Positions 1 to 37,824 of a stretch of 64,000 bases of DNA are shown here, one piece after another. This DNA is from Prevotellaceae bacterium (GTDB lineage Bacteria; Bacteroidota; Bacteroidia; Bacteroidales; Bacteroidaceae). A program made the translations under genes and the position numbers. Location of the stretch: positions 1,871 through 65,870 of the forward strand of contig JBNMJN010000009.1 of NCBI GenBank assembly GCA_050873805.1. The letters are read 5' to 3'. Every line of letters begins with the position of its first letter. Position 1 is the first letter of the stretch. Below the pieces are notes generated by a model. The model made no database searches, was not told the DNA's origin, and saw nothing but the letters and a program-made list of their open reading frames with translations.

Positions 1-1108
1 CATCGTCCCACTCAAAGCGCAGCCCCTTGACAGGGAAGCCGTGCTTCACCATGCGTGGGATAAGCTGGTTGTTCACGATGTCGCGCAACATGGTGCAATC
101 GCTCTCCACCAAGTTCTCGAACACCTCCAGGTGCGTCTCCGACTGCGAGAGGCTGCTTCCGTCCTCAATGGTCATGGTCTGCCCGATGATGAGCTTTGAG
201 AGTTCCGAGTTCGCGCGGTCGATGCGCTTGTCATAGACATTGAAGGCATCGCCCTTGCCATTCTCCACGAACTCAATCTCCGTGTCCTGCCCGGCAACCA
301 TGTACTGGCTTGCGCCAGCCCCCTTCAGCATCTGTTCCAGCCGTCCCATCTCTTTGGGGTCGCGTGAAGTCGTGCGAGCGATACGCATTGGCATACCGAA
401 AATCTCGCCGAAGGTGTCCCAGAACGCCAGCATGTTCTTCTTGGGAATAGTCTGCGTGGCAGCCTTCAGATACAGACCGAGGTCGTCAGGCCGCCCGGCT
501 TCAATGAGCCAGTCGGAGAACGGAGCCGAGCGGTAGTCGATGCCCGAAGTCCAGTCCTGCCCAATCTGCTGCACAACACGCCCGTATTCCGGAATGACAT
601 GCTTGCGTGGAATGAGCGTCACCATATTGTAGCACACGCAGCCATCGCCGTCCGTGGTGAGGTCGCCAAGCTCGATGAGCGAGTGCCCCCAGTTGTTGGC
701 GGCCAGCGCATATTCGAGCAACTGCTTGAACCACGACTGGTCGAAATAGTGGTGCGCCTCCTCGTTCTCGTTGCCCTGTGCGTCCACCAACTTGAACGAC
801 TTCGCCATGACGAAGCCCACACGCTGGCGCACGCAACCCGAGAGGTGCAGGTCAATCTCCACATCGCGGTAAATATCATAAAGCCGCTTGCGGTCTGGGT
901 TGTCCACGTTGATGGCCATCTGCCAAGCCTGTCGCCAGTCGGCGATGTCCTTGCGCGTGAGTGCGTCGGTGGTGCGCTGCAGTTCGATGACCATCTTCTT
1001 CACACGCTTGCGGTCGGATGACTTGGCAAGGTTGAAGTTTCCGTATGGTGTGCGCAGCACATTCTGCCCACCACCGAACATACCGCTGAAAAAGTTCTTT
1101 ATATCCAT
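1..1108 (-). CDS. Phage portal protein, Mu gp29/DUF935-like (partial; continues past the window start)
   Basis: My own reverse translation from ATG 1108..1106 is open to position 1 (MDIKNFFSGMFGGGQNVLRTPYGNFNLAKSSDRKRVKKMVIELQRTTDALTRKDIADWRQAWQ...). It is missing from the ORF track because it runs off the edge. It lies downstream of the terminase genes. Family assignment is from recalled sequence character only. Confidence 0.6.
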   Translation of the reverse strand, partial: MDIKNFFSGMFGGGQNVLRTPYGNFNLAKSSDRKRVKKMVIELQRTTDALTRKDIADWRQAWQMAINVDNPDRKRLYDIYRDVEIDLHLSGCVRQRVGFVMAKSFKLVDAQGNENEEAHHYFDQSWFKQLLEYALAANNWGHSLIELGDLTTDGDGCVCYNMVTLIPRKHVIPEYGRVVQQIGQDWTSGIDYRSAPFSDWLIEAGRPDDLGLYLKAATQTIPKKNMLAFWDTFGEIFGMPMRIARTTSRDPKEMGRLEQMLKGAGASQYMVAGQDTEIEFVENGKGDAFNVYDKRIDRANSELSKLIIGQTMTIEDGSSLSQSETHLEVFENLVESDCTMLRDIVNNQLIPRMVKHGFPVKGLRFEWDD

Positions 1109-1778: not shown

Positions 1779-3338
1779 TTACCAAATGTTTTTGGCGGTC
1801 GGCCTCTTGCCGAACACCGGTTTGAAACTTTCCTGTCTTGTGTTGCGCTGCAGGATCCATATCGCACCCTCGTCAGCGTCAGGCGCATCGTCATGCACAC
1901 GGCTTCCACGCTCCAGTGCCAGCGTCTGTTCGATGCCCACCTGCATGTCGGGGTCGTCTTTCTTGCGCTCGTTGTAGAAAACAAAGCCACGCTCCCAAAG
2001 CGGACTGACCGCCTCGATGCGCTGAATTTTGTCCGGCTTCTTGCGCTTGTCGGGCATGATGGGCAACTGGTACCCGCGCAGGTTTCCCTCCACGGCGAAC
2101 TCGTCCAGGATCACGTCCTGCATGAAGTTCGCCTCCATGAAGAACTGCACGGCTACCGTGTCGCGTGTGCGCTCGTAGAGGTCGTAAAGCCACCGCACCA
2201 TCTCGCTGACTGTAGCCTGGCGCACGAAGGCATCGATGAGATGCAGTTCCGAGCCAATCTTTCCCCACAGGCGACACGCCTTGTAGTCGTTGGAAGTGGT
2301 CGATTTGAACGACGGGTCGGTGTAACATACCAGCATGTCGTACTTTTCGAGCTTGGGCAGACGCTTGTAGCGAATCCACTCCGCACGGAAGATGGTGCCG
2401 TCCACGATAGGGTTGTGCATCATCTCCTTCTCCCAGGCGCGGTAGCCCACGAAGTCGCGGTAAGCCTGCGCCTCCTCCTTCGTCCACTTCTCCTTCCACA
2501 CAGGCTCGCCGTTTCGGTCCACCGCCTGTATCTTGGAGAGGAACACGCCCTTTGTGCGCGAGATGTTGTAGAGCACCGAGTTCTTGCTGATGAGGTTGCC
2601 CACCATGATGAAACGGCCACGACCCACATCAAGCGCACCGAAGAGCGCCTCCTTCACCCAGTCCGTGAGGTCATGCACCAGTTTCTCGTTGCGGCACAGC
2701 TGGTCGTCGTCCAAGTCGTCGATGACGATGTAGTCCGGACGAGCCTCACGGTCGCGCAGACCACGTGGCGACTGACCGCGACCGCAGGCAAGGAACTTCA
2801 CACCGCTCTTGGTCTTGAACTCGCCCTCCTGCCAGCCACCGTCATTCTTCTGTTGCCCGAAGTCAGCGATGAGCCGTTGGTTGTATTCCAACTCCGCCTG
2901 AATGTCGCCGAGCAGTCGGTCGGCATTGTCCTCTGACTTGCCCACGACCACCATAAAGTTGATGAGCCGCTTCGGTTGGAACATCAACCAGAGCGGCGTG
3001 AAAACATCAAGGTGCGTCGATTTGGCATGACCGCGCGGCCACATGAACACCGCCTTCAGGTCGGGCGTGTTTCGCACCTTGCGTGCCGCCTCGTTGTGGA
3101 ACGGCGCATTGTGAATGGTGCGTATGACCTCGCCGGTCGTCTTGTCGCGCAACTGGAGGAAGTGGGGGAAGTAATACTCGCAGAACGCCGCATAATTACC
3201 CAGCAACCGTTTGATGCGCATATCCCTCTCCACGGGCGTTTCGCTTTTGAGAAGCGACGTGTCCGTGATGGACTGCACCTGCCGGCACCGCTCTTTCCAT
3301 TCCTCGTATGCCTTTTTCTTTTCCGCTGCTGTTGCCAT
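1779..3338 (-). CDS. Terminase large subunit
   Basis: 519 aa. ATPase region (MWPRGHAKST; IVIDDLDD) followed by a nuclease-like C-terminal half (DPSFKST...; HDDAPDA). Sits directly downstream of an HTH small-subunit-like gene. Confidence 0.85.
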   Translation of the reverse strand: MATAAEKKKAYEEWKERCRQVQSITDTSLLKSETPVERDMRIKRLLGNYAAFCEYYFPHFLQLRDKTTGEVIRTIHNAPFHNEAARKVRNTPDLKAVFMWPRGHAKSTHLDVFTPLWLMFQPKRLINFMVVVGKSEDNADRLLGDIQAELEYNQRLIADFGQQKNDGGWQEGEFKTKSGVKFLACGRGQSPRGLRDREARPDYIVIDDLDDDQLCRNEKLVHDLTDWVKEALFGALDVGRGRFIMVGNLISKNSVLYNISRTKGVFLSKIQAVDRNGEPVWKEKWTKEEAQAYRDFVGYRAWEKEMMHNPIVDGTIFRAEWIRYKRLPKLEKYDMLVCYTDPSFKSTTSNDYKACRLWGKIGSELHLIDAFVRQATVSEMVRWLYDLYERTRDTVAVQFFMEANFMQDVILDEFAVEGNLRGYQLPIMPDKRKKPDKIQRIEAVSPLWERGFVFYNERKKDDPDMQVGIEQTLALERGSRVHDDAPDADEGAIWILQRNTRQESFKPVFGKRPTAKNIW

Positions 3339-6525: not shown

Positions 6526-6535
6526 CAACAAAAAC

Positions 6536-7798: not shown

Positions 7799-7801
7799 CG
7801 T

Positions 7802-8514: not shown

Positions 8515-8518
8515 AAAC

Positions 8519-12703: not shown

Positions 12704-12704
12704 C

Positions 12705-13169: not shown

Positions 13170-13192
13170 CGACATTCTAACAGCATTCCGAT

Positions 13193-17127: not shown

Positions 17128-20100
17128 ATGACAGACGAAGAGAAGAAGACAGTCGTTCAGGAAGTCCTGAACCAGATAAAGACAGCCAGCCAGAGTGTGG
17201 ACGAGCTGGAAACCGCCACTTCACTTGACAGCGTGAACTCACTACCGGCTATACAGGGTGAGAAAGTCGTCCGGGTGCCGATACCCTTGCTTGCTAAACC
17301 TGCGGAAGATGCGGCCAAGACCGCAAACGCAGCCGCTGCCACGGCGGACGCATCATCAAAAGCGGCCGGAACTGCGGCACAGCAGGCCAAAGATGCGGCA
17401 GATGTAGCATCGGGTGCCGCCCTCACGGCAAACAATTCGGCCATGCTTGCCGATGCGGCCACGGCAAAGCTGAATGATGCCATCGCGGCCGCCAACACCC
17501 ACCCGGTGGTGCTGGCGAATTATCTTGTCGGTGATCCTGACCGTATATTCTCTGACTGGCGTGACGCGGCCGAGACAATAGCCGGTGATGAAAGCTACGG
17601 CGGGGAGCAGGTCTTCACGACAGGCTGTGTGATGATATTCAGAAGTGAAGACGGCTGGGAGTCCTGGCAATATACCGGCAATCTGGACGGTGACCTTTAT
17701 GATGCGGAGAAATGGCAGGAATATGCCACAGGTGGCAGTGGCGGAAATACCTACAACGTGACAGAGGAAGTCCCACTTGAGAGCGGTTATTATACATTAG
17801 CGACCGCTATCGTTGCAGTGGAGGATAAGAAACGCGCGAAGGGACGCTGCATCACTTACGAGACGGCGCAGGGCAAGTGGGAAACCAAGCAGTTTGTCGG
17901 CACAAGCCTTGACAGCTGGGAACAGGTCGCGAGTTGGGAGGACTTCGGTGGTGCAGGCAATGTGAAGAGCATCTCGGTGAACGGGAAGAAACAGACACTT
18001 GACAGCGCGGGCAACGTGAACCTCACCATCAACGAGACGGAGGTGGACGAGAGCCTGAACACGAACTCCACCAATCCGGTGCAGAACGCGGCCGTGGCCA
18101 CCAAACTTGCAGAGGTCGAAGCCAACACCATATTCGGCGGCAGTGCCGAGCTGAGCGACGACGAGAGCACCGTGCGTGTGACGCTGACCAACAAGAGCGG
18201 CGCGGAGATTGTCGGTTTGGATATTCCTGCCGGCAAGGGCAGTGGTGGCGGAGAAACCTCCACCACCAAAATCGTGCTGACGGCAGAGACAGACAAGTCC
18301 GTCATCAAGGAAGGCGACAAGGCCACACTCACATGGTTCTACGACCACCAGTACAGCAGCGGTGACGAGAAAGGCACATCGACGGGGCAGAAAGCCACGG
18401 TGGAGATACAGATGAAACGTGGCGCGACACTGATGTATTCCGACACGCAGCAGGACGTGAGCAAGGGCACCTATACGCTTGACCTTACGAAATACCTCCT
18501 TTTGGGCACGACTGACATCTATGTGAAGGCCACCACCACCGACCCGACCACAGGCAAGACGCAGACCAAGCAGAGCTATGTGAGCGTGAAGGCAGTTACC
18601 CTTGCCTTGAGCAGTGGTTTCAATATCGCCGAGTGCATCGCGAAAGGCGGTTATGGCGTGAGCGAGAACGTGGGCATACCCTATGCCGTAAGCGGAAGCG
18701 GCACAAAGACCGTCACCCTCTATGTGGACGGCATACAGAAAGATTCCGTTTCCGTCACGAGGAGCGGCACAACCAACGGCAGTTTCACGCTCTCCATGTC
18801 GGGGCTATCAGTCGGCAGGCATACCGTGCAGATGGTGGCCGAGATGAAGGCAAGCGAGGAACTGACACTGAAGAGCGAGAGCATCTATTTCGACATATTG
18901 AAGACCGGCAGCAGTGCCCCCTATATCGGAACCAAGATTACCTTCAAGGACGGGCGCATCTTTACGGCAGACCATCTTACCCCGACTATTGACACAGGCC
19001 AGTATGAGCAGGTGCTGTTTGACTTCGTGGCGTATGACCCGACGGCAACCCCTGCAAGCATGAGCGTGTGGAGGGACGACATAAGGACACAGACTGTGAG
19101 CGTGCCGAGGACGGTGCAGACTTACACGAACCGTTTCTTGGAGAAAGGCGCGGTGGCGATGGTGTTCAAGTGCGGCACGACCGAATACAAGTTCAACGTG
19201 AACGTGACGGAGAGCAGCATCGACCTTGGCGAGGCTACTTCTGGGCTTGTACTGAAACTGACGGCTGCGGGCAGGAGCAACAGCGAGAGCAACCCTGCGG
19301 AATGGAGTTATAACGACGTTCAAACGGCGTTTGAAGGCTTTGACTGGCAGAGCAACGGCTGGACGGGCGACGCGCTGAAACTGACGAACGGTGCGAACAT
19401 CGAGATAGGCTACAAGCCTTTCAGCAACGACGCGACCACGACGGGCGCGACCTACGAGATGGAACTGACCTGCACGAACGTGACAGACCGGAAAGGCACG
19501 GTGGTGGACTGCATGGCCGGCAATGTCGGTTTCCGGCTGACCACGCAGGAGGCACTGATGCGCACTGGTGCAGGAAGTGAGGTGGGCACGAAATTCGCGA
19601 GCGGGATGACGCTGAAGATAGCCTTCGTGGTGCAGGAGAAGAAGGGCAATAGGCTGATGGAGCTGTATGTGAACGGCATATTGAGCGGTGCAAAGCGGTA
19701 TGCCCCGACAGACAGCCTTTTGCAGGACGAGCCGGCCAACATCAGAATAACGAGCGAGAGCGCGGACATGGAGGTGCGGAACCTGCGCGTGTATAACCGC
19801 GCACTGGGCGATGACGAGGAACTGGCAAACTACATGGTGGACCGCCCGACGAGCGACGAGATGGTGGTGCTGTTCGAGAAGAATCAGGTGATGGACGACG
19901 AGGGCACTGATGTCGATATAGACAAGCTGAGGGCGATGGGCAAGAGCGTGATGCGCATCGTGGGCGACGTGAATCTGGTGAACCAGACGAACAACAAGAA
20001 GTTTGAAGTGCCGGTGGACATCTACTTCTACTCGGCCTACGGCAAGGAGTATGACTTCATCATCTACCAGTGCGGTCTGCGCATACAGGGCACGTCATCG

Positions 20101-23100
20101 ACCACCTACCCAAGAAAGAACTACCGCATCTATTTCTCAAGGGAGAGCAAGTACGGCACGAAACTGTATGTGAACGGCGTGGAGGTTCCCGACTTCAAAT
20201 ACTCGTTCAAGCCCGGTGCACGTCCCATCGACATCTTTTGCCTGAAGGCTGACTTCTCGGACTCGTCCTCCACGCATAACCCCGGTGGTGTGCGCATCGT
20301 GAACGACATCTGGAAGAAGTGCGGCTGGCTGACCCCGCCACAGGCGGCATACAAGGGCAACTACGACGTGAGAATCGGCGTGGACGGTTTCCCGATGGAC
20401 CTGTTCTACGACAACGACGGTACGGGCGAGAACGTGTACTTAGGCAAGTACAACTTCCTGAACGAGAAGAGCGGCAGCGGCATCATCTACGGCTTTGAGG
20501 GCATAGAAGGCTTCAATGACGAGGCGGCGCTGAACGGCGAGCGGAACAAGTGCATCTGCCTGGAGTTCCTGAACAACTCGGAAGCGCTGTGCCTGTTCGG
20601 CACGAGCAACATGGACTCGTTTGACGACGCGCTGGAGTTCCGCTTCAAGGCTGACCAGACGTGGGCTACGGCACACGAGGACGACAAGGCGGCGGTAAAG
20701 CGGCTGTGGGAGTGGATACAATCGTGCAAGGGCAACCCGACAAAGTTCCTGAACGAGTATGACCAGTATTTCGGGAACGACTCGCCCTTTGCCTGGTACT
20801 TGATAACGGACTACCTGATGGCTGTGGACAACCGGGCGAAGAATATGATGCTCGTGACATGGGACGGCAAGATATGGTACTTTATCCCCTACGACATGGA
20901 CACGATATTCGGCGAGCGCAACGACTCGGTGCTGAAGTATGACTACACGATAACCTGGGAGACAATGGACGAGAGCATCGGCTCGTATGCCTTTGCCGGA
21001 CACGACTCCACGCTGTGGGAGCTGGTGAGAGGCTGCCCCGACAAGTTGCGTGAGGTGGCCGACAAGCTGCGCTCAACCATGTCCCTTGAATATGTGCTGA
21101 AGGTGTTCAACGAGGAGCAGATGGGCAACTGGTGCGAGCGCATCTACAACAAGGACGGCATCTACAAGTATATCAAGCCACTTACAGAGGGCGTGACGAG
21201 CGCGGACGGCACGACGAGCTACTATGACTACCTGTATGCCTTGCAGGGCAGCCGGTACGCGCACCGCACGTTCACGATACAGAACCGCTTCGCGCTGCTT
21301 GACAGCCAGTATGTGTGCGGAACATATAGAAAAGACAGTTTTGCGGCCTACTTTGGCTACAAGTTTGGCTCGGACAACAGAAAGATACGGATCACGGCAA
21401 GCGAGCGGTACTATTTCGGCTACGGCTACACAAGCGGAACGCCTCACCAGAGCGCGGTGCTGGCCGAGGACACGGGTAGCACGGTAAACCTGATATTGGA
21501 TACAGACCTCATTGTGAACGACCCTCAGTACGTCTATGGCGCGAGCCGCATCATGGGGCTTGACCTGACGGATGTGAGCCACGCAATACTGCAGACGCTG
21601 AATCTGAATAACTGCTCGGCACTGCGTACTTTGGACGTGAGCTGCGCACAGACACAGACAACACTGAACGCCCTACTGGTGAACGGCTGCCGGAACCTGC
21701 GGATACTGAACATGACTGGCTTGAAGTCAAGCAGTTTTACAGGCATAGACCTGAGCAACAACACGAAATTAGAGACGCTGAAGGCTGGCAAGACAGCGCT
21801 GACTGGCGTGAACTTCGCGCAGGGCGCACCACTGACAAGCGTCACATTGCCGGCATCGCTCCAGACTTTGGAGCTGCGCTACCTTGGCAAACTGACTACG
21901 AGCGGACTGACGCTGGAGGGCACGGGCAACATCACAAGACTGGTGGTGGACAACTGTCCGGGAATAGACTGGCAGACACTGAAGGCAAGATGCACCAACG
22001 TGAAGTACTTGCGCGTGACAGGCATCGACATGGAGGGCGACGGCAGTCTGCTGACCTCGCTGATGGCGACGGGTGGTGTGGACGAGAACGGTGGCAACGT
22101 GGACACCTGCCGACTGGTGGGAACGTACCGACTGACCTCTTATAAAGCGGATGAGGAGTATGAGGCATTGCAGGCGCACTTCCCCGAACTGAACATCGTG
22201 CAGCCGGAATACACGATGCTTGAGAGCGACGAGAGTGTGGCAGACGATGCGAACATCTCGAACCTTGACAACGGGACGGGCTATAAGTACGGCAACGACT
22301 ACAAGCCGAGCGGCCACATCGAGTCCATCTTCAAGAACCGCCACCGCGTGCTGGCGAAGGTGACGAAGAAGGCCACGACGAGGAACGTGAACATCGCCAA
22401 TGTGGACACCGTGGTGAACAACCTTGACGGGGAGATGACTTACTGCCAATTGGACGATGCGGACAGCAACAAGTACGCTGACGGCTCGGCGGCCAAGCTG
22501 GACGGCACGGAGGGCGACTGGATGATGTATGAGCCGTTCTTCTGGAGCAAGGGCATCAATGACTTTTTGAACAACAAGAACTACTCGTGCTACAGCTTCA
22601 GAGACAAGGACCACATGCCGAGTGTGCCGAATGTGGATGTGCTGACCTTGGAGGACATCAAGAAGACGCAGGGCGGCTACACGAGCGGCAAGAAGGTGAT
22701 GAGCGGGAAGGACACCGTGACCAACTCGCTGAGCACGGACAGCTCGTACTCGGTGTGCATGGTGAACGTGGCGGGCTACAAGAAGGTGCGCTGGCCGAGC
22801 GTGCCAGGCACGAACCTCGTGGGTTCGGTATTCACAGACGCAAGCGGCAATGTGGTGGACAGCATCGTGGTGCCGACGCTGGGCAACCGCTTTGAGGCTG
22901 GGATGTATCTTGTCAAAGACATTCCCGAAAATGCCGTGGCCTTGTACTTCTCGATACTGAACACGGCGGAGTTCGACAAGGTGGTGCTGAGCAACAGTGG
23001 GAAGATAGAGGATATGGAGCCGGAGTGGTTCGCTAACGACGAGCACCTGTGCGCAGTGGTTGGCAGTTCGGTAGTCGGCAGTAAGTTGCGCTCCTCCATA

Positions 23101-23901
23101 ACAGGCAACAGCACCACTGGCAACATGACATGGACGGACTTCCACTACTACAGCGTGCAGCGAGGGATGCAGCAGATAGACGCACTGATGCACTTCCGCA
23201 TAGCGAACCTTGCCTATGCCAAGTATGGGCGGAGAAATATGCAGGAGCAGTGTGGCGCCGGCTCGCATACTTATGCGCGCACGACCGGCGGCACGGCATC
23301 AAGGGGCATGCAGGACACGATAGGCTATGAGGAGGCAAAGGGCATCAACCCCAACGTGACCAACAGCCTTGTGGACGAGAACCGAGTACATCAATATGCC
23401 TGGTATAAAGACAAGGACGAGTATGGCGCAGCGAAGGTGACGCAGGTGAACAACATCTGCTGCATCGGCTACGAGGACATCTACGGCCACAAGTATGACA
23501 TGATGGACGGCGTGGACTTGCCTAACGACTCGGGTAATGCCGGCAAATGGCGCGTGTGGATGCCTGACGGCAGCACGATTATGATAAAGGGCACGACGAA
23601 CAGTGGCTACTGGATAACCTCGGTGGCTCATGGCAAACTGATGGCGGTTATATCCGTCGGTTCCATGAACGGCTCAAGCAGCACATACTATTCAGACCTA
23701 TACTGGGTAAGCACCTCATCAGGCCGTGTGGTCTATCGCGGTTACAGCAACGCGTACGCGGATGGCGGTGTTTCGAGTGCGCATGCGAGTGGCGATGCCT
23801 CGTATGCGAATGCGGGTGTCGGCTCGCGTCTCGCCTTCCGCGGAAAAATCGTGAAGGCGCAAAGCGTGGCCGCGTATAAAGCGATAACCGAGGTGGCGTA
23901 A
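17128..23901 (+). CDS. Giant multidomain tail fibre / receptor-binding protein (LamG-like, CotH-like, LRR, C-type-lectin-like C-terminus)
   Basis: 2257 aa. LamG-like: LMELYVNGILSGAKRY...NLRVYNRALGDDEELANY (~19250-19830). CotH-like: IQGTSSTTYPRKNYRIYF, LKADFSDSSS, DNRAKNMMLVTWDGKIWYFIPYDMDTIFG (~20060-20920). LRR: LNLNNCSALRTLDVS...NLRILNMTGLK...LETLKAGKTALTGVNF (~21540-21960). CLec/FGE-like: IYGHKYDMMDGV...RVVYRG...GSRLAFRG (~23440-23850). Confidence 0.75.
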   Translation: MTDEEKKTVVQEVLNQIKTASQSVDELETATSLDSVNSLPAIQGEKVVRVPIPLLAKPAEDAAKTANAAAATADASSKAAGTAAQQAKDAADVASGAALTANNSAMLADAATAKLNDAIAAANTHPVVLANYLVGDPDRIFSDWRDAAETIAGDESYGGEQVFTTGCVMIFRSEDGWESWQYTGNLDGDLYDAEKWQEYATGGSGGNTYNVTEEVPLESGYYTLATAIVAVEDKKRAKGRCITYETAQGKWETKQFVGTSLDSWEQVASWEDFGGAGNVKSISVNGKKQTLDSAGNVNLTINETEVDESLNTNSTNPVQNAAVATKLAEVEANTIFGGSAELSDDESTVRVTLTNKSGAEIVGLDIPAGKGSGGGETSTTKIVLTAETDKSVIKEGDKATLTWFYDHQYSSGDEKGTSTGQKATVEIQMKRGATLMYSDTQQDVSKGTYTLDLTKYLLLGTTDIYVKATTTDPTTGKTQTKQSYVSVKAVTLALSSGFNIAECIAKGGYGVSENVGIPYAVSGSGTKTVTLYVDGIQKDSVSVTRSGTTNGSFTLSMSGLSVGRHTVQMVAEMKASEELTLKSESIYFDILKTGSSAPYIGTKITFKDGRIFTADHLTPTIDTGQYEQVLFDFVAYDPTATPASMSVWRDDIRTQTVSVPRTVQTYTNRFLEKGAVAMVFKCGTTEYKFNVNVTESSIDLGEATSGLVLKLTAAGRSNSESNPAEWSYNDVQTAFEGFDWQSNGWTGDALKLTNGANIEIGYKPFSNDATTTGATYEMELTCTNVTDRKGTVVDCMAGNVGFRLTTQEALMRTGAGSEVGTKFASGMTLKIAFVVQEKKGNRLMELYVNGILSGAKRYAPTDSLLQDEPANIRITSESADMEVRNLRVYNRALGDDEELANYMVDRPTSDEMVVLFEKNQVMDDEGTDVDIDKLRAMGKSVMRIVGDVNLVNQTNNKKFEVPVDIYFYSAYGKEYDFIIYQCGLRIQGTSSTTYPRKNYRIYFSRESKYGTKLYVNGVEVPDFKYSFKPGARPIDIFCLKADFSDSSSTHNPGGVRIVNDIWKKCGWLTPPQAAYKGNYDVRIGVDGFPMDLFYDNDGTGENVYLGKYNFLNEKSGSGIIYGFEGIEGFNDEAALNGERNKCICLEFLNNSEALCLFGTSNMDSFDDALEFRFKADQTWATAHEDDKAAVKRLWEWIQSCKGNPTKFLNEYDQYFGNDSPFAWYLITDYLMAVDNRAKNMMLVTWDGKIWYFIPYDMDTIFGERNDSVLKYDYTITWETMDESIGSYAFAGHDSTLWELVRGCPDKLREVADKLRSTMSLEYVLKVFNEEQMGNWCERIYNKDGIYKYIKPLTEGVTSADGTTSYYDYLYALQGSRYAHRTFTIQNRFALLDSQYVCGTYRKDSFAAYFGYKFGSDNRKIRITASERYYFGYGYTSGTPHQSAVLAEDTGSTVNLILDTDLIVNDPQYVYGASRIMGLDLTDVSHAILQTLNLNNCSALRTLDVSCAQTQTTLNALLVNGCRNLRILNMTGLKSSSFTGIDLSNNTKLETLKAGKTALTGVNFAQGAPLTSVTLPASLQTLELRYLGKLTTSGLTLEGTGNITRLVVDNCPGIDWQTLKARCTNVKYLRVTGIDMEGDGSLLTSLMATGGVDENGGNVDTCRLVGTYRLTSYKADEEYEALQAHFPELNIVQPEYTMLESDESVADDANISNLDNGTGYKYGNDYKPSGHIESIFKNRHRVLAKVTKKATTRNVNIANVDTVVNNLDGEMTYCQLDDADSNKYADGSAAKLDGTEGDWMMYEPFFWSKGINDFLNNKNYSCYSFRDKDHMPSVPNVDVLTLEDIKKTQGGYTSGKKVMSGKDTVTNSLSTDSSYSVCMVNVAGYKKVRWPSVPGTNLVGSVFTDASGNVVDSIVVPTLGNRFEAGMYLVKDIPENAVALYFSILNTAEFDKVVLSNSGKIEDMEPEWFANDEHLCAVVGSSVVGSKLRSSITGNSTTGNMTWTDFHYYSVQRGMQQIDALMHFRIANLAYAKYGRRNMQEQCGAGSHTYARTTGGTASRGMQDTIGYEEAKGINPNVTNSLVDENRVHQYAWYKDKDEYGAAKVTQVNNICCIGYEDIYGHKYDMMDGVDLPNDSGNAGKWRVWMPDGSTIMIKGTTNSGYWITSVAHGKLMAVISVGSMNGSSSTYYSDLYWVSTSSGRVVYRGYSNAYADGGVSSAHASGDASYANAGVGSRLAFRGKIVKAQSVAAYKAITEVA
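23722..23841 (+). other. DGR variable-region-like segment at the 3' end of the fibre gene
   Basis: In codons 23737-23841 every adenine lies in position 1 or 2 of an NNY codon (tac agc aac tac gat agt cat agt gat tat aat). All other codons are A-free (gcg, ggc, ggt, gtt, tcg, gcc, gtc, cgt, ctc, ttc, cgc). The peptide is YSNAYADGGVSSAHASGDASYANAGVGSRLAFR. Confidence 0.5.
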
Positions 23902-23941
23902 AGCGAAGCGCGACAAAGCGGGAGCGAAGCGACAAAACGAA

Positions 23942-23978
23942 AAGAACGGGGTTCGGATGGTGTCCGGACTCCGTTCTT
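23942..23978 (+). terminator. 16-bp stem hairpin downstream of the fibre gene
   Basis: aagaacggggttcgga / tccggactccgttctt pair fully (two G-U wobbles) around the loop tggtg. It lies 41 nt after the stop and has no T-tract. Confidence 0.45.
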
Positions 23979-23991: not shown

Positions 23992-24015
23992 ACCGGCGTA
24001 AGCCGGTCGATTTTT
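23992..24015 (+). terminator. Rho-independent terminator
   Basis: Stem accggc, loop gtaa, stem gccggt, followed by cgattttt. Confidence 0.55.
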
Positions 24016-24043
24016 GTGAGGGTGGGGGAGTGCCCCAGCGGTA

Positions 24044-24099
24044 CGTTTCGTTTTAAGAAATTATGCGGTTCGTTCTGAAAAGGTGAAACGCTTCGTTTT
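24044..24099. repeat. Three phased direct repeats CGNTTCGTTYT (candidate transposase/recombinase end-binding sites)
   Basis: Copies at 24044-24054, 24066-24076 and 24089-24099, spaced 22 and 23 bp. They sit at the junction between high-GC phage DNA and the truncated DUF1016 gene. Confidence 0.4.
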
Positions 24100-24129
24100 G
24101 CGGATTATAATGCCCGTAAGGCTGTCGGT

Positions 24130-24654
24130 ATGTTCAAGGACGAATATCTGCTTGATTATATCAATGTAGAGGAAATGGAGGTTGACAAGTCTGAGGATGT
24201 TGACGAAAGGGTGATTGAGCAAGCCATTGTCCGCAACATCAAGAAGTTCATCATGACTTTTGGCCGAGACTTTGCGTATATCGGCAACCAATATCATTTG
24301 GAGATATACGGTGAAGAGTTGTTCCCAGACTTGCTTTTCCTCAACCGTGAACTTAACTGCATGGTTGTGGTTGAATTGAAAAAAGGGGCATTCAAACCCG
24401 CCTATATAGGTCAGTTGCAAACATACATGAAAGTGCTTGACGACAAGGTGCGCAAGCCACATGAGAATCCTACTATTGGCATTCTTCTCTGCAAGAGTGC
24501 CAACAAGGCTTTCGTGGAGTATGTCATCCGTGACTACAGTAGTCCTATGGGAGTCGCCACGTATAAAACGGCTGAAGACATGAGCGAAGCCATGCGAAAG
24601 GCTTTGCCCGACATTGACGAGATGCGAAAGCTACTCACCGAAAGCGATAAATAA
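24130..24654 (+). pseudogene. PDDEXK nuclease, YhcG/DUF1016 family, C-terminal half only (5'-truncated)
   Basis: The 174 aa start at the KDxYxLxF-like segment and contain the nuclease core (DLLFLNRELNCMVVVELKKGAFKP...IGILLCK). The ~170-aa N-terminal domain typical of the family (recalled) is absent. An in-frame stop at 24076 lies inside the repeats. Confidence 0.55.
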
Positions 24655-24777: not shown

Positions 24778-25980
24778 ATGCCCAAAAGAATAGCTTCTTT
24801 GTTCTCTGGCTGTGGTGGATTAGACCTTGGTTTTACAGGTGGATTCACTTTCAGAGGACATGAATATAATAGACTTAATACAACTATACTGTTTGCGAAT
24901 GATTTTGATCAAGATGCGCAGACCTGCTATAATGCCAATCCACTTCTTGCAGAGGATGGGGCTGAATGCTTATTAGCAGATATTAGAGATGTTGAAGCAG
25001 AGAATATTCCAGACTTTGACATTTTGTTGGCAGGATTCCCTTGTCAACCATTTTCTAATGCAGGAAAACGAAAAGGGGTGAATGATGCTAATGGTCGGGG
25101 AACTTTATTTGCCGAATGTGAACGCATTATTCGGAGTAAGATAGAAATCGGACACAGACCACAAGCATTCGTATTCGAAAACGTACGTGGCATACTATCG
25201 TCAAAGATGCCAGATGGAGAAACAAGTGTTCCACAAGAGATTATAAACAGAATGCATAAACTTGGGTATCAAGTATCTATGCAGTTGGTCTGTGCCTCTG
25301 ATTATGGTGTTCCACAAAAGCGGTATCGTGTCTTGATAGTTGGTGTTGACGAACAATTAGGACTTGGTGCTTTTGATTTTGAAGCTATGCGGCATGTCGT
25401 AGAATTAAATAATATTCCTTCGGAACATTTTGGTAGGAAAGAAGGGCTTTTGCTTGGAAGAATCTTGCAAGGTGTTGAAAATGTCTCCGACAATGAAGTT
25501 TGGGAATATAGTCCTGGTACACAACAAACTGTAAATTTGATTGGCAGCTGTTCACATGGAATGAAAGCCATCCGTCAATTTCATGATGGATATAAGATTT
25601 CTGAGTTATCTGAAGATTGTTTTGAAGGGAAATCGTGGAAAGATATTCCTTACGAGTTATTGACTCCGAGATTTCGCAATATCGCAGACAATCCTCAAAA
25701 ATATCATGCTCCGAAATTCTTTAGAAGATTTGCTTTCGGGGAAATCAATGGAACGATTACAGCTTCAGCTCAACCAGACAAATGTGGAGTAACACATCCT
25801 GTTGAAAACAGAAGATATTCTGTTCGAGAATGCGCAAGGATTCAATCCTTCCCTGACAATTATACATTTGGTGCAATACCACTTCAATCTCGATATAAAG
25901 TCATAGGCAATGCTGTTCCACCTATTTTGGGATGGGTACTGGCATCAGCTTTGTTGGATTTTCTACCAAATGACAATTGA
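24778..25980 (+). CDS. DNA (cytosine-5)-methyltransferase
   Basis: Motif I SLFSGCGGLDLGF, motif IV GFPCQPFS, ENV, QKRYRV, C-terminal RECARIQSFPD and GNAVPP. Confidence 0.9.
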   Translation: MPKRIASLFSGCGGLDLGFTGGFTFRGHEYNRLNTTILFANDFDQDAQTCYNANPLLAEDGAECLLADIRDVEAENIPDFDILLAGFPCQPFSNAGKRKGVNDANGRGTLFAECERIIRSKIEIGHRPQAFVFENVRGILSSKMPDGETSVPQEIINRMHKLGYQVSMQLVCASDYGVPQKRYRVLIVGVDEQLGLGAFDFEAMRHVVELNNIPSEHFGRKEGLLLGRILQGVENVSDNEVWEYSPGTQQTVNLIGSCSHGMKAIRQFHDGYKISELSEDCFEGKSWKDIPYELLTPRFRNIADNPQKYHAPKFFRRFAFGEINGTITASAQPDKCGVTHPVENRRYSVRECARIQSFPDNYTFGAIPLQSRYKVIGNAVPPILGWVLASALLDFLPNDN

Positions 25981-25982
25981 TT

Positions 25983-28070
25983 ATGGGCTATTTAAGCAAG
26001 AAAACGATACTACAAGCTTATGAGAAACTTTCTCATTTAAGCAAAGACCCTACATTACAAGGGGCAACTCAGAAAGTCAGTGCTATAAGATATTTTATGG
26101 CACTCGATAGTTTCTGTCTGAAATTTCATAGAGATTGCAATACTCGCGACAAAAATGATAAAAAAGAATACGCCAATCACGTAGGTCTTGTGTGTGATGT
26201 GTGTCTAAACTTGTACACACCAAATTTTTATTATCCTCTAAAAGAACATAATAAAGATTTTGGCGTAGGTAGTAATTTTTATTCTGCAGGTCAAGTTAAC
26301 TCTTCACTTGTAAATCCAGAAGAAACGTTCGTTTATCCAAAACGTGGTGGAACTCCACTATTCCATATAAAAAATGGCACTCTAATTCGTGACGAAGAAC
26401 TGTATTCAAACTTTGATTCCTATATTGAAGGCGTTTCGTGTAGGGTAGCTTTTGTCTTATGGCTATTAAGAAAGACACCCATTGATGATAATGAAAGCAT
26501 CTTTGAAGGCATTCGAAAATCCATAAGTAGCATTTATTCAAAAAGACTTGTGGATACATTGATAAGTGATGAGGATTCTTTTAAATTAGAACTTGGCAAT
26601 TACGATTGCTCTCTAAATGAGAATTTCTATTCCATTAGAGAGGAAGACATAAATGGTTTATTCAATGTGAAAAGCAAGAATCAACGTCTGATAGTATCAA
26701 ACAATATGCTAAACCAGAACAGCAAAGAGATCAACTATCTCGCCGCCCTCCGCACCAAGCCTTTCATGCTTCTTGCCGGCATCAGCGGTACTGGCAAGAG
26801 CCGCATTGTGCGCAAGTTGGCACAAGCGACAGTGACAGAGGAGCTGCAAAGAGCAAATGGGTATAAGGGGAATGATTGGAAGGATGACCGTTGGACGCTG
26901 CACTCTCCAGCCAACTTTGAGCTTATACAAGTGAAGCCAAACTGGCACAACTCGATGGATGTAATTGGCTATTTGTCGAACATTCCGAGTCCGCATTATG
27001 TATTCACGCCATTCATTGAGTTTATAGTAAAGGCATGGCAGCATCCCGAAGTGCCGTTCTTCCTGTGCCTTGACGAGATGAACCTCGCTCCTGTGGAGGA
27101 ATACTTTGCCGAATTTTTGAGTGCCATTGAGAGCCGTAGCTTTGAGGGCGGAGAATACATGACCGACCCCATCATCAAGCCATTCAACTCTTTTGGAGAA
27201 GATGTAGCAAAAATAATGGTAAACACACTATTCCCGAACTTCAAGGCAAGCGATACAGAATCGGAGATTGTAAAGGTTATCACACATTTACGCACAAGAG
27301 GTCTGACCCTGCCCAAGAACCTCATTGTCATTGGCACGGTGAATATGGACGAGACCACTTTCTCCTTCTCACGCAAAGTGCTCGACAGAGCCATGTCGGT
27401 AGAAATGAACGAGGTGAACTACGACAGTTTCCTGACCGACGCGACAGATGATGAGCTCAAAGCCATTGTAAAGGCATTTGAGGAAAACGAAGAGGCAAAC
27501 CTGAATACATTGCTTGTAGACCGACACATCGAAGCAAGGGAAATCATTGAAGAACTTGGCGAGGATGCCCAGTTTGCCATTGACTATCTAAAGCGCGTCA
27601 ATGCCCTGCTTGAAGGCACTCCATTCAAACTTGGCTATCGTGCCGCCAACGAGGTGTTGATATATCTACAAGCTGCGCATGAGCTCGGGCAGACCGACCG
27701 CATAGCTGCGCTTGACAACTTTACGCTGATGAAGATACTCTCACGCATAGAGGGCGATGAAACAAAATTGAAAATCACCAATTCGGAAGCAGACAAGCAG
27801 CGCATAGCCAATGCCGGTGTTAACGTAGATGCCGCCAAGCAATATGGCGACTTGAACATACTCACGGCATTGAGGAACATCATCACGGGACAGTTGGGCG
27901 AGACTGATAATGCCGATATTGATAGTGATGATACTGAAGAAACGGCATCAGAGAATGGAGAGGAAATGATTTCCACCGAGCAGAAAAATAAAGAGTTACA
28001 GTCTGTCAAAAAGATAGACAGCATGCTCAGCCAGCTCAAACGTGACCATTTCGTTTCCTATTGGAACTAA
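25983..28070 (+). CDS. McrB-like AAA+ GTPase restriction subunit (LlaJI.R1-like) with an uncharacterised ~250-aa N-terminal domain
   Basis: Walker A LLAGISGTGKSR, FFLCLDEMNLAPVEEYFAEFLS, IGTVNMDETTFSFSRKVLDRA. The track start at 25977 is TTG; the ATG at 25983 lies 3 nt after the methyltransferase stop. Confidence 0.85.
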   Translation: MGYLSKKTILQAYEKLSHLSKDPTLQGATQKVSAIRYFMALDSFCLKFHRDCNTRDKNDKKEYANHVGLVCDVCLNLYTPNFYYPLKEHNKDFGVGSNFYSAGQVNSSLVNPEETFVYPKRGGTPLFHIKNGTLIRDEELYSNFDSYIEGVSCRVAFVLWLLRKTPIDDNESIFEGIRKSISSIYSKRLVDTLISDEDSFKLELGNYDCSLNENFYSIREEDINGLFNVKSKNQRLIVSNNMLNQNSKEINYLAALRTKPFMLLAGISGTGKSRIVRKLAQATVTEELQRANGYKGNDWKDDRWTLHSPANFELIQVKPNWHNSMDVIGYLSNIPSPHYVFTPFIEFIVKAWQHPEVPFFLCLDEMNLAPVEEYFAEFLSAIESRSFEGGEYMTDPIIKPFNSFGEDVAKIMVNTLFPNFKASDTESEIVKVITHLRTRGLTLPKNLIVIGTVNMDETTFSFSRKVLDRAMSVEMNEVNYDSFLTDATDDELKAIVKAFEENEEANLNTLLVDRHIEAREIIEELGEDAQFAIDYLKRVNALLEGTPFKLGYRAANEVLIYLQAAHELGQTDRIAALDNFTLMKILSRIEGDETKLKITNSEADKQRIANAGVNVDAAKQYGDLNILTALRNIITGQLGETDNADIDSDDTEETASENGEEMISTEQKNKELQSVKKIDSMLSQLKRDHFVSYWN

Positions 28071-28083
28071 CCATATATCGCAC

Positions 28084-30444
28084 ATGGCAAGCGTATTCAA
28101 CTTTGAAGTGGCAAATGAGGACTTGTTGGTAAGGTTCTCATGTCCCAATCATGAGCTGAGAATAGCCGAAACCGTCCGCAACCTATGTATCGACACTGAC
28201 TGTCAAGACAGTGCCGCAAAGTTGTTATGCCGTTACACGGCAGAAACTCAGAATGTAAAGTTCTCCTTTGAAGGAAACGTACAGGAGGGGAATGACATAC
28301 GACATGAAGCCGTGTTCTTTGAGAATACGGAATATCCGCTTATTGTGCGTGGCAGAGGAAAGGAGTTGCAGGATTTGTCGCTTGCCATCAACGACCATTT
28401 GCGCACAGACGGCAAGGAAAAAAGCACCATCATCAGCACGGGTGATGAACTATACGGCTCGCTGAACTTTCACAACCAAGTGGGCATGACCGACTTCTGC
28501 ATCACCTACAGGGTAAAAGGAGAAGTGCAGACTAAGGAACTGAAGTTCATGACCGAGGTGTTGAGCTACAAGTTGGACTACCGCTCCGACCTGAAGACCA
28601 TCATCTCTGACATAGAGCACGAGTATGCCATGCTGAGCACATCGTTCTTGAAGGACACCTATCTCAGTATGCGCCAAGGTACTGGTGAGAACAATCCGCT
28701 GATATGGTGGCAGATATTCAAGTCGTGCTATGCCGACATCATGGCGGCAGCACGCCAAATTATCGACCGCCCCAAACGGCGTTTGCGCTCCATTGCCAAG
28801 TATGAGAGAGCAGAGCGTATGGCGTATATCCCAAGAGAACTTGAAAACGAATACCAGACGCACAAGGACAATCCTGCTCATTTATACCGCACAGAAGAAC
28901 TTACGCTGAGCCACGACACAATAGAGAACCGCTTTCTGAAATATGCCATCCGAGAAATGACGCATCGCTTCGCCGTGGTGAAAGAACACATCATGACCGC
29001 CATGCACCTTGATGACCCGAAGCGCATTGATACTTCGCTTGAAGAAATGGAGAACGAGCTGATGCAACTCTCCAATAATGCGTTTTTCCGTGGCGTAGGA
29101 CAGTTCAAAGGATTCACGCAAGACAACCTCGTGATGAAACAGGCGCAAGGCTACAAGACCATCATGGAGAAATGGGTGGAACTGCAACAAGGTTATGAGT
29201 TGGAGGACGGCATGAGGAAACTGGAGGTGAAAGACATCTGCGACCTGTATGAGATATGGTGCTTCATCAAGGTGAAGAACATTGTGCAGGATGTGATGAA
29301 AGAGTTGGGCAAGGATGCCCAACCAAAGGTGAACGGCAGGGACATTACCAACGACTTCATTCCGCAGCTCGTATATGGCGGTTCGGTGAGTTTCATCAAC
29401 CAGTCAGGCATTGAGTTGGCAAGTGTATGCTACAATGCTGAGGTGCATAAAGGCAAATCCTATTCAGCCATAAGCGGAACAAACACCATGACTACGGTGC
29501 AGCGTCCCGACATAGTGCTACGGTTGAGCAAACAGGCAGAAGGCAACATGAAGTTCACCTACCTGTTTGATGCCAAATACCGAATAGCCGATACAGACGA
29601 GAACGGCAACAGATACGATAGTCGTTATGACGTTCCGCCTGCTGATGCCATTGACCAGATGCACCGCTACCGTGATGCCATATACTATACGGAGGAAGGA
29701 CGTGACCGTGAGCACTTGAAGAAAGAAATCATAGCAGGTTATGTGCTATTTCCTGGTCGCATACCATTAGAAGCTCTTGATGCGGAAAATGGAGACTATT
29801 ACTATCAGCAGTCAAACCGCTTGATTGGCATCGGCGCTTTTCCCTTGCGCCCTGACCAAGAGCAGCATGCTGATGACGGAACCATCATCGTAAATGCCAA
29901 CAGTTCGGAGCAAGCCTTGCGCAGACAGATACGCCATTGGCTTGAAGAAGACAACGGACGAGAGCAATTACTCGAAGAAAGTATTCCTCAAAAAGGGTTG
30001 GAATACTCGGACGAACCTGTTAATAAAGGTACATTCTACATTGCGTCAGTAGATGGGCATGTGAACGTAGCCAAGGAATTGGTGCTGAATGGTCAAAGCA
30101 AGATTTTCTTCTCTGGCTATAAATCCATCCTTTCGGGTGTGGATTTTCAGAAGATAAAATACTTTGCCCCTGTTGACAACCACTTGGTAAAAGGATATTA
30201 TCAGGTGCTCTCGGTGGAAGCGATGGATATGAGTGAAGTGCTGGTGAAAGAGAAAGCGGAAGCCAAAGGTGTAGCCTTGAAATATGGAGGCTACGATAAG
30301 CCTATCCGCATTTGCCTGAAGTTGGGCAAATACACTCTGCTATCCGCTCCCTTTGTCTATGGACTGGACAGCAATGCATCCAAAGGGATTGCTATGACAA
30401 GGAAAGAGTTTAAGGAGTATTGCGAGAGAACCACATCAGTATGA
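28084..30444 (+). CDS. McrC-like nuclease subunit (DUF2357-type N-domain + PD-(D/E)xK core + extra C-terminal domain)
   Basis: RPDIVLRL...YLFDAKYRI...DQMHRYRDAIYY gives a D...DxK nuclease core. ATG 28084 (MASVFNFEV) follows the McrB-like stop. About 170 extra C-terminal residues have unknown function. Confidence 0.8.
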   Translation: MASVFNFEVANEDLLVRFSCPNHELRIAETVRNLCIDTDCQDSAAKLLCRYTAETQNVKFSFEGNVQEGNDIRHEAVFFENTEYPLIVRGRGKELQDLSLAINDHLRTDGKEKSTIISTGDELYGSLNFHNQVGMTDFCITYRVKGEVQTKELKFMTEVLSYKLDYRSDLKTIISDIEHEYAMLSTSFLKDTYLSMRQGTGENNPLIWWQIFKSCYADIMAAARQIIDRPKRRLRSIAKYERAERMAYIPRELENEYQTHKDNPAHLYRTEELTLSHDTIENRFLKYAIREMTHRFAVVKEHIMTAMHLDDPKRIDTSLEEMENELMQLSNNAFFRGVGQFKGFTQDNLVMKQAQGYKTIMEKWVELQQGYELEDGMRKLEVKDICDLYEIWCFIKVKNIVQDVMKELGKDAQPKVNGRDITNDFIPQLVYGGSVSFINQSGIELASVCYNAEVHKGKSYSAISGTNTMTTVQRPDIVLRLSKQAEGNMKFTYLFDAKYRIADTDENGNRYDSRYDVPPADAIDQMHRYRDAIYYTEEGRDREHLKKEIIAGYVLFPGRIPLEALDAENGDYYYQQSNRLIGIGAFPLRPDQEQHADDGTIIVNANSSEQALRRQIRHWLEEDNGREQLLEESIPQKGLEYSDEPVNKGTFYIASVDGHVNVAKELVLNGQSKIFFSGYKSILSGVDFQKIKYFAPVDNHLVKGYYQVLSVEAMDMSEVLVKEKAEAKGVALKYGGYDKPIRICLKLGKYTLLSAPFVYGLDSNASKGIAMTRKEFKEYCERTTSV

Positions 30445-32512: not shown

Positions 32513-33457
32513 TCAAGTTGCTAAAATGTATCCTTCTTGCTCATATCCCTTGCGGTACCGATGAATCATATCCACAAGAGGTTGAAGGCGGGCATCCGTC
32601 ACTTCCATGTTCTTGAACCTCGCATACTGCTGGTCATAGAGGGAGGCATTACCATCTGCCAAACGCACCTCAATGTCAGAGGGTATCAAGAAAGAAGCCC
32701 TATCCCCCAACTGGACATAAAACTCGGAGAGATAGATGTGAATACCAGCCAAATCGAAGTCACCGAAATGGATGTAGCGATTGGGAATCCGCTTCAGCCA
32801 ATCTCGCAAATCCGAAAGATTTTCCTGAGGATAACGGCTTACAAACAAATAATGTTTCTCCCGATGAAATCCATCAGAAGAACTTTTCCCACCAACAGAC
32901 AAAGCATCGAAAAGATACTCCTGCTTCCTAATCTGCATGAAATTCTCTGCATTCTCCATTCCCACCACTATTACATCTTCGGGAATCTCGAAGGTTTCTG
33001 GAGTGTTGATGAAGATGGAGCTGCCCTCCTGAGGTTTCAACAGGAAAGGACGATGATGCAAGGTCGCCTCTATCGGAGTATAGCAATCCACCAAGAAGCC
33101 TCGGAAAGTCTTCACTTTCTTATATTTGGAATCACCAACTTTAGAAACCAATTCCGCTCGGCTTTCCTGAGGAAATTCTCCTATCCATTCCTCCAACGAG
33201 CATTTCAGTCCAAACTGCTGCGCCAAGCACACACGGCAAGCCTCTCGCCGGGCATCGGCTATATGATACTTGCATCGACTGCCATTGCTTCTCATCAGCA
33301 GCAGGCTTTCTTGCCGCAACCATTCTGCCATGTGAGGAGACAGCTTTGAAGAAGCCACCTCCTCGCCATTCAGCATAGCCAGTATTTGTCGGGCATCGCC
33401 CAAGCCTAATTTCTCCATGTTCCACACATTATTGCATATAAGGAAACATTTTTCCAC
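32513..33457 (-). CDS. jetD: Wadjet JetD (Toprim / DUF2220-type nuclease subunit)
   Basis: VVGMENAENF...LFVSRYP...IHFGDFDLAGIHIY is Toprim-like. Last gene after jetABC. The 33457 start is GTG; an alternative ATG is at 33418. Confidence 0.8.
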   Translation of the reverse strand: MEKCFLICNNVWNMEKLGLGDARQILAMLNGEEVASSKLSPHMAEWLRQESLLLMRSNGSRCKYHIADARREACRVCLAQQFGLKCSLEEWIGEFPQESRAELVSKVGDSKYKKVKTFRGFLVDCYTPIEATLHHRPFLLKPQEGSSIFINTPETFEIPEDVIVVGMENAENFMQIRKQEYLFDALSVGGKSSSDGFHREKHYLFVSRYPQENLSDLRDWLKRIPNRYIHFGDFDLAGIHIYLSEFYVQLGDRASFLIPSDIEVRLADGNASLYDQQYARFKNMEVTDARLQPLVDMIHRYRKGYEQEGYILAT

Positions 33458-33463
33458 AAAAGA

Positions 33464-37180: not shown

Positions 37181-37242
37181 ATCAATATCGTTTGTCAAGC
37201 CATCGCCCCTCAATGGCACTTGAATTCTTCACTCTTCGTTCT

Positions 37243-37803: not shown

Positions 37804-37824
37804 TTTTATTAGATACTATTTGAG

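Follow-up and report, generated by a model that had tools for sequence, protein, structure and literature searches.

A Hankyphage-type retroelement variable region in a Mu-like prophage of a Prevotellaceae bacterium, with its template and reverse transcriptase probably displaced and inverted in the same prophage

Within a 64,000-nucleotide (nt) stretch of DNA from a Prevotellaceae bacterium (contig JBNMJN010000009.1, positions 1,871 to 65,870; the whole stretch is called "the window" below), the 3' end of a prophage gene had been proposed, on its sequence alone, to be a variable region (VR) of a diversity-generating retroelement (DGR). The follow-up analysis makes it highly probable that positions 23722-23835 are the VR of a Hankyphage-type DGR, located in a Mu-like prophage at the C-terminal end of its distal tail protein, and that the template repeat (TR) and reverse transcriptase (RT) are displaced in the same prophage, approximately 2-2.5 kb to the left of base 1. 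The window would thus contain a VR without TR or RT because the cassette is displaced and the window's edge falls short of it by that distance. The original prediction of a DGR VR at the C-terminus of a fibre-like protein, produced by adenine-specific homing from AAY codons, is supported for three reasons: the target is homologous to a Hankyphage DGR target of demonstrated activity, the TR of a close relative differs from the VR at adenines only (13 adenine vs. 0 non-adenine positions), and in related phages variation is restricted to the columns in which the TR has adenine.

Adenine pattern and boundaries of the variable region

The putative target is a tail-fibre-like open reading frame (ORF) of 2257 amino acids (aa), located at 17128..23901 on the plus strand and identified as the DGR target by its reading frame and its homology. 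Positions 23722-23841 form a run of 40 codons in the frame of this ORF. The run has 14 adenines, and all of them (14/14) are at codon position 1 or 2; the codons bearing them have the form NNY (TAT, TAC, AGC, AAC, GAT, AGT, CAT, and AAT), and the remaining codons are free of adenine. A recount of the narrower interval given originally (13 adenines in the 35 codons of 23737-23841, every one in the first or second position of an NNY codon) agreed. The pattern was scored over the 15 long ORFs of the window, which comprise 13,262 segments of 40 codons. Only one of these, 23722-23841 itself, had the adenine-restricted property, and the next longest run of allowed codons elsewhere was 27. Allowed codons make up ca. 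71% of the codons of the target gene, and the chance of 40 in a row is accordingly 0.71^40, or about 1e-6. The pattern is genuine and is not an effect of composition. A DGR VR was recognizable in the raw sequence purely from the codon positions of its adenines.

The stretch homologous to a TR (23722..23835, plus strand) was delimited by alignment with the VR and TR of the Bacteroides (Phocaeicola) dorei Hankyphage p00 (BK010646) and with the TR of a closer relative, L291, which is described below. At the nucleotide level, the window's VR is in register, column for column, with the p00 VR (38049-38164) and TR (38419-38534). Twenty-two codons separate the VR from the stop codon of the target. 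The VR is at the 3' end of the ORF, and the AAY design of its adenines means that mutagenesis cannot create stop codons. The 3' end of the VR is GC-rich (23818..23843, plus strand), and comparison of VR and TR sequences places the end of their homology within it: the VR boundary reads ...CGTCTC followed by GCCTTCCGCGG, and the TRs there read ...CGTCTC followed by ACCAAC or ...CCTG followed by GAAATC. By analogy to phage BPP-1, 23818..23843 may be a boundary resembling the initiation-of-mutagenic-homing element, with a role in the initiation of homing.

Homology of the target to Hankyphage

The C-terminal 633 aa of the target match phrog_14959 (PHROG 14959) end to end. When the last 333 aa were used as a tblastn query against GenBank phages, 26 records were matched, 24 of which were 60-80% identical; these included p00 and isolates at ca. 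75-78% (the p00 DGR target itself is ca. 76% identical). The other two were an unannotated human faecal phage contig (84%) and a Bacteroides thetaiotaomicron phage (36%). Relatives in IMG/VR were 84-89% identical over the same residues. In the p00-type records, a feature annotated "diversity generating retroelement variable repeat" underlies the tblastn match. The DGR of p00 was described by Benler et al. 2018 (PMC6199706), and the activity of the Hankyphage DGR has been shown experimentally (PMC12135933).

Two domains in the middle part of the target are unusual accessories for a tail fibre: a CotH kinase-like domain (aa 984-1306, window 19900-21050; Pfam E = 9e-7, with a score above the gathering cut-off) and an LRR_EndoS domain, matched weakly.

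A cognate template in relatives

A TR was predicted from the window's VR by restoring adenine at the variable positions, and the prediction was scanned against IMG/VR. Two over-specified TR/VR patterns gave zero matches. With two silent positions freed, exactly one match was obtained, i.e. locus L291, which is colinear with window 1-6444 at 91.7% identity. Over the 114 nt of 23722-23835, the L291 TR and the window's VR mismatch at 13 of 27 template adenines and at none of the 87 other bases (Fisher's exact p = 4.6e-10). The 13 substituted adenine sites (plus strand) are 23747, 23755, 23761, 23772, 23777, 23782, 23789, 23791, 23792, 23803, 23815, 23816, and 23833. The encoded peptides are ...YNNANANGGVSNANANNDASNANAN... 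for the TR and ...YSNAYADGGVSSAHASGDASYANAG... for the window's VR. One of the substitutions is silent (GTA to GTT), which shows that the rule is adenine in the template and not selection on the protein. The RT gene of L291 begins ca. 200 nt past the end of the TR (ca. 315 nt past its start).

Pairs of VR and TR on the same contig were compared in the same manner. The differences at adenine and non-adenine sites, respectively, were 13 and 0 for L050 (VR) and L087 (TR), 9 and 0 for L007 and L145, 15 and 0 for L043 and L163, 13 and 0 for L016 and L197, 6 and 0 for L064 and L151, and 11 and 1 for L003 and L115. Judged by these counts, the remote repeats in the six pairs are the cognate templates of their VRs. 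Two further same-contig pairs were not cognate: L018 and L132 (contig IMGVR_UViG_3300045988_185346; 13 adenine-site vs. 19 non-adenine mismatches) and L013 and L157 (11 vs. 6). The VR of L018 is p00-like, and the two pairs suggest recombinant tail-fibre modules or chimeric contigs.

Column entropies were calculated for 68 distinct VRs, of which one is the window's and 67 come from relatives, and for 55 distinct TRs. Variation between the VRs was confined to TR-adenine columns, with a mean column entropy of 1.42 bits there vs. 0.37 bits elsewhere. For the TRs, the mean was 0.27 bits, adenine and other columns alike; the relatives' TRs of this Hankyphage-type family are very alike between phages. 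From the concentration of VR entropy at TR-adenine columns, diversification is judged to be ongoing in the lineage, the class with a remote cassette included. One VR, assigned as such by its 3' flank GCCTTCCGCGG (L023:6825-6945, IMGVR_UViG_3300045988_147528), retained all TR adenines with zero substitutions; this could reflect either non-mutagenic homing or an assembly consensus drawn to the TR.

Location of the template and reverse transcriptase

No TR-like copy was found in the window by an adenine-tolerant scan of both strands; the best alignment matched 85 of 120 positions, 42 of them rescued by adenine alone, which is noise. A repeat search of the window detected no second copy of 23722-23841, a tblastn search of it with the p00 RT had a best E-value of 0.22, and an Rfam search of it gave no match. 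The claim that these 64 kb hold neither TR nor RT thus withstood the adenine-tolerant scan, the repeat search, and the RT search, all of which were empty.

For a comparison of layouts, 80 loci with genes related to the C-terminus of the target were fetched from IMG/VR. Seventeen had the p00 layout, in which a TR starts ca. 390 nt past the start of the VR and is followed by the RT. Another 27 had no TR or RT downstream; in these, homology to the window runs to exactly 24109 and then diverges, and the window belongs to this group. The remainder were too short to classify (32 loci) or were apparent VR/TR assembly collapses (four loci). A TR-specific 20-mer was then scanned against IMG/VR to locate the TRs of the class that lacks a downstream TR, and contigs of this class were found to carry TR and RT on the other strand from the VR, ca. 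26 kb upstream of it.

The same architecture was reached by a route that did not select for TR or RT. The large terminase of the window (TerL; 1779..3338, minus strand; phrog_38, E = 2e-84) was used as the anchor for finding relatives, and an identical TerL was listed in 421 blocks of the assembly collection. Among the matches listed, an RT (RVT_1) was located ca. 4.2 kb beyond the identical TerL in six of six places; a further seven similar places stood outside that listing. The gene order in these six listed places is TerS, TerL, gp36, Portal_Mu, Mu_F, a 77-aa ORF, TR, RT (RVT_1, 436 aa), a 161-aa ORF, an 80-aa ORF, thymidylate synthase (ThyA), and an N6-methyltransferase. The relatives found in this way are ca. 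93% identical to the window. In every relative examined, the RT adjoins the TR; it is an RVT_1 protein that shares 67-83% of its residues with the p00 RT.

The left edge of the window cuts a Mu-type portal gene (1..1108, minus strand; Pfam Portal_Mu, E = 5e-68, profile positions 1-301 of 336). In colinear relatives, the DGR cassette is downstream of the portal gene on the same strand, in the order Mu_F, 77-aa ORF, TR, RT. Relatives in which the module follows after another 2-2.5 kb are colinear with window 1-13345 and show no rearrangement relative to it. Using L087, L203-L208, and L291 for the mapping, base 1 of the window is 2.05-2.5 kb from the TR, and the RT maps ca. 2.4-4.1 kb to the left of base 1. 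The original prediction did not decide between a DGR acting from elsewhere and one that has been lost; the evidence favours the former, because the module is in the same prophage in all six listed places with an identical TerL and on every contig that has both repeats.

The module is at the right end in p00 but after Mu-F in the window's relatives and so, by comparison of gene orders, has changed both place and orientation between the two lineages. Every TR is preceded, at ca. 25 nt, by a conserved GAGTAACTTTGCA similar to the Bacteroidetes -7 promoter motif TAnnTTTG, and the spacer of ca. 200 nt between TR and RT is highly conserved and structured (L203:15340-15720, L001:9150-9516, L026:7150-7540). 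Since the promoter-like motif and the spacer are common to adjacent and remote cassettes, the module appears to have moved as a unit with its own promoter. The TAACTTTG motif ca. 25 nt upstream of the TR may be the cassette promoter, and the conserved spacer could belong to the DGR RNA. The 80-aa ORF two genes past the RT (L203:17719-17961), which is inside the relocated module, has a weak Mor-like/helix-turn-helix signature (cf. the Mu late-gene activator family).

Assemblies are frequently interrupted at the VR or within it, or else pass directly from it to the 3' flank of the TR (L030, L049, L063, L073, and the contig ends L047, L051, L053, L058-L067, and others). Such VR/TR collapse would make targets look orphan or cassettes look adjacent.

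The prophage and its right end

The left 24 kb of the window are a Mu-like phage in p00 gene order (Terminase_5, TerL, Mu gp36, Portal_Mu, head, tape measure, tail). The small and large terminases, Mu gp36, and Portal_Mu are encoded on the minus strand; the protease/scaffold, capsid, amidase, tape measure, tail proteins, and target are on the plus strand. The transposase genes are outside the window. The target, terminase, and tail genes and the visible part of the portal gene are intact ORFs.

The right end of this transposable prophage was located at 24040..24109 (plus strand), as the 27 related loci without a downstream TR share sequence to this point and then run into unrelated DNA. They stop ca. 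369 nt past the start of the VR at the window's terminal sequence; the prophage right terminus ends ...GCGGATTATA, and the shared homology of the loci ends ...GAAACGCTTCGTTTTGCGGATTATA. Because these loci share a terminal sequence and then enter different flanks, 24109 is, on the strength of this alignment, the normal right end of a phage that transposes into many different sites. It is ca. 210 nt past the stop codon of the target, and the earlier statement that no prophage gene follows the target is correct. The last 70 nt contain three TTCGTT(T/C)T repeats (24047, 24069, and 24092) at intervals of 22-23 nt, and the p00 terminus carries similar repeats; these are plausibly transposase binding sites. 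A scenario in which the cassette was deleted and replaced by the yhcG, Dcm, and McrBC-like genes downstream was considered and rejected, as 27 independent loci end at the same terminal sequence.

Several small elements occupy the space between the stop codon and the phage end. Just past the stop codon is a 21-nt motif, GCGGGAGCGAAGCGACAAAAC (23918..23938, plus strand), which was noted for its recurrence in relatives: it is found downstream of the target in p00 and also in loci of both kinds, with the TR either adjacent or remote, with at most three mismatches and in nearly every listed locus identical. The 16-bp hairpin originally placed at 23942-23978 is real; in the minimum-free-energy fold it is at 23944..23976 (plus strand), with a stem of ca. 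15 bp, and the 214-nt region around it has a folding z of -5.9. Two compensatory stem changes were observed within the remote-TR class (L005 and L029/L042), and p00 has a different stem sequence at this position. The hairpin is missing from an adjacent-TR clade that has a complete adjacent cassette (L009-L012, L019, and others), so it is not a universal DGR or homing element. The sole hairpin kept in every architecture is the small GC hairpin CCGGC-GTAA-GCCGG (23992..24007, plus strand); it was found by a terminator scan and, in the window, is followed by a T-run and has a terminator-like score.

Proposed mechanism and alternative explanations

For this copy, what was observed directly is the pattern of VR products, a fully compatible template in a near relative, and the architecture of the lineage. 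The prophage probably still has its cassette, and the cassette may be active. The steps would be those of known DGRs (TR RNA is copied by the RT, bases are misincorporated at adenines, and the cDNA replaces the VR; summarized in PMC12135933). Thus, an RNA bearing the TR would be reverse-transcribed by the element's own RT, with misincorporation opposite template adenines, and the resulting cDNA would replace the VR in this copy. Eleven AAY (Asn) codons and a few codons with a single adenine would be randomized without giving rise to stop codons, for 15^11 (ca. 1e13) variants or more. The module, comprising TR, RT, the 161-aa and 80-aa ORFs, ThyA, and the N6-methyltransferase, would be located past Mu-F on the opposite strand, ca. 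26 kb from the VR, and the DGR would act on a single, non-adjacent target within the same prophage. Action at this distance is compatible with earlier reports, in which DGR components function in trans and the targets of phage DGRs can be non-adjacent, at up to 50 kb (PMC5758913). The TR is expected on the minus strand to the left of base 1, as a stretch of ca. 114 nt that would read GGCCGTGTGGTCTATCGCGGTTACAACAACGCGAACGCGAATGGCGGTGTATCGAATGCGAATGCGAATAACGATGCCTCGAATGCGAATGCGAATGTCGGCTCGCGTCTC or differ from it only where the window's VR agrees. The known DGR mechanism is left unchanged by these findings.

Several points weigh against this interpretation. The TR and RT are attributed to this prophage by way of relatives that are 92-94% identical. 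The 40-mer at the window's edge was absent from GTDB representative genomes, and in JGI metagenomes it matched only an 87% relative that ends 1.2 kb to the left of the window, short of the TR. Exact look-ups of the window's target and gp36 proteins yielded no record. Published Hankyphage maps annotate an Avd (PMC12135933); neither Pfam nor NCBIfam revealed an Avd-like protein among the small cassette ORFs of the relatives (77, 161, and 80 aa). Finally, the C-type-lectin (CLec/FGE-like) fold that had been proposed for the target is unconfirmed here, and would follow by analogy from the C-type lectin domain that Benler et al. 2018 (PMC6199706) reported for the p00 homologue. No Pfam match to such a fold was obtained in any of 43 aligned sequences (the window's own and 42 homologues), and two PDB sequence searches with the target gave no match to it. 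Two AlphaFold runs on the target were of low confidence (pLDDT 54 and 58), with the VR region below 40, the lowest of the model; two Foldseek searches with these models returned nothing significant.

The pattern might instead have arisen by chance, composition, or codon usage in a C-terminus rich in Gly, Ala, Ser, and Asn, with no DGR involved. The gene is indeed GC-rich, and ca. 71% of its codons satisfy the rule already; however, a single segment in 13,262 has the property, an independent TR matches at all non-adenine positions, and variation between relatives is confined to TR-adenine columns, and this explanation, which is refuted, retains essentially no probability. A different account holds that the prophage lost its TR-RT module by deletion or truncation to the left of the window, such that the VR is an orphan or fossil and its pattern is a frozen trace of past homing. 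The 64 kb do lack both TR and RT, the prophage continues beyond view on the left, and defective Hankyphage prophages have been reported (PMC12135933). This loss is nonetheless unlikely given that window 1-13345 is colinear with relatives that bear the module, that the module is present in six of six listed places with an identical TerL, and that the target, terminase, visible portal, and tail genes are intact.

It is also conceivable that the VR is diversified in trans by a DGR outside the prophage, be it that of a second Hankyphage-like element or one on the chromosome whose TR matches. In its favour, DGR components can operate in trans, targets far from the cassette are known (PMC5758913), and the family's TRs are very similar from phage to phage. 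Such a source is unnecessary, since the lineage's own cassette explains the VR perfectly, and the 40 kb of host DNA in the window contain no TR-like or RT-like sequence; the idea is highly improbable. A cassette that is absent or no longer functional to the left of the window, with an orphan VR that is either kept variable in trans by another DGR or frozen, is likewise quite improbable. Were it true, here would be a naturally occurring example of a phage whose receptor-binding gene is serviced by a retroelement that the phage lacks.

A relocated, inverted cassette in the same prophage, 26 kb from its sole target, is more likely than an orphan VR, and it would be a layout not yet described for relatives of Hankyphage; displaced cassettes as such are already on record for phage DGRs. 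The practical consequence is that "no RT nearby" is no evidence of loss, as TR and RT are ca. 26 kb from the single target in a widespread lineage of gut phages. Pipelines that expect VR and RT to be a few kb apart at most, or that use windows or contigs broken at repeats, would call such targets orphan. The occurrence of adjacent and remote layouts in close relatives with nearly the same target gene provides a natural comparison for how the cDNA finds its target, and a natural test of whether homing is independent of distance and orientation. With this finding, the hosts of Hankyphage-like DGR phages come to include a member of the Prevotellaceae.

The host flank

At the junction of phage and host, the GC content falls from 57% to 41%. 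The first host ORF (24130..24654, plus strand) is a yhcG-type nuclease of the PD-(D/E)XK type that has only the C-terminal domain (Pfam YhcG_C, PF06250, profile positions 3-156 of 157, starting from residue 1). Because this ORF has the C-terminal domain only and abuts the phage end at 24109, insertion of the phage into the gene is suggested; the Mu-like prophage probably split a yhcG-type gene, the N-terminal half of which would be expected to the left of the prophage, outside the window.

The yhcG-type ORF is at the start of a low-GC island (24100-46000; 41-50% GC vs. 55-62% in host core genes), and ca. 16 kb of restriction and defence-like genes follow it. A Dcm-type methylase (24778-25980) precedes an AAA protein (25977-28070; a match to the PADLOC candidate PDC-M26A) and a protein with DUF2357 and PDDEXK_7 domains (28042-30444, assigned by domain match); together these look like a McrBC-like pair. 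Domain matches also identified a minus-strand cluster (32513-39114) with a 1250-aa SMC-like DUF3584 protein and a DUF7281 protein, for which PADLOC had no match, and a fused DEAD and UvrD helicase of 1633 aa (40854-45758). Further into the host DNA, a 22-nt unit, GCAGCGCGGTGCGATGGCCGAT, is present in four tandem copies at 51253-51362. Host core genes assign the host to the Prevotellaceae; ProRS, for example, is 94% identical at the aa level to a protein of a Prevotellaceae metagenome-assembled genome.

Comparison with known systems

The DGR of BPP-1 (target Mtd) shares with the present one a VR that lies C-terminally in a distal tail protein, adenine-specific mutagenesis of AAY codons, a GC-rich 3' boundary of the VR, and downstream hairpins. 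In BPP-1 a hairpin is next to the end of the VR; the hairpins here are 100-150 nt from it. The two targets have no detectable sequence similarity, the BPP-1 cassette is adjacent to its VR, and no Avd homologue was recognized in the cassettes of the window's relatives.

The resemblance to p00 is closer. The target is homologous, the VR is at the same place, and the AAY-rich TR is of the same design; the RT of the window's relatives is homologous as well, at 67-80% aa identity, and is followed by ThyA and methyltransferase genes, and the Mu-like transposable backbone has the same divergent blocks of terminase/portal and head/tail genes. The differences lie in the cassette and the host. In p00, the TR starts 370 nt past the start of the VR on the same strand, near the right phage end, whereas in the window's lineage the module is after Mu-F on the other strand, ca. 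26 kb from the VR; the host here is a member of the Prevotellaceae, not Bacteroides or Phocaeicola. Megablast to p00 covered 17% of window 1-24100 at 74% identity. The genus criterion for Hankyphage is an intergenomic similarity of >70% (PMC12135933), and the prophage, as judged on window 1-24100, is a relative of Hankyphage that is not of the same genus by this measure. As for the traits of the genus, the Mu-like backbone in p00 gene order is present, with insertion sites that differ between loci and a common terminal sequence; no cassette directly downstream of the target was found, and the phage ends 210 nt past the stop codon.

The arrangement deduced here has its nearest counterpart in the survey of Wu et al. 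2018 (NAR; PMC5758913), in which phage DGR targets were within 50 kb of the RT and two phage-associated DGRs had no adjacent target, only a single one ca. 20 kb away. The DGR proposed for the window would, like these, have a single non-adjacent target. Here, the distance would be ca. 26 kb and the orientation would be inverted.

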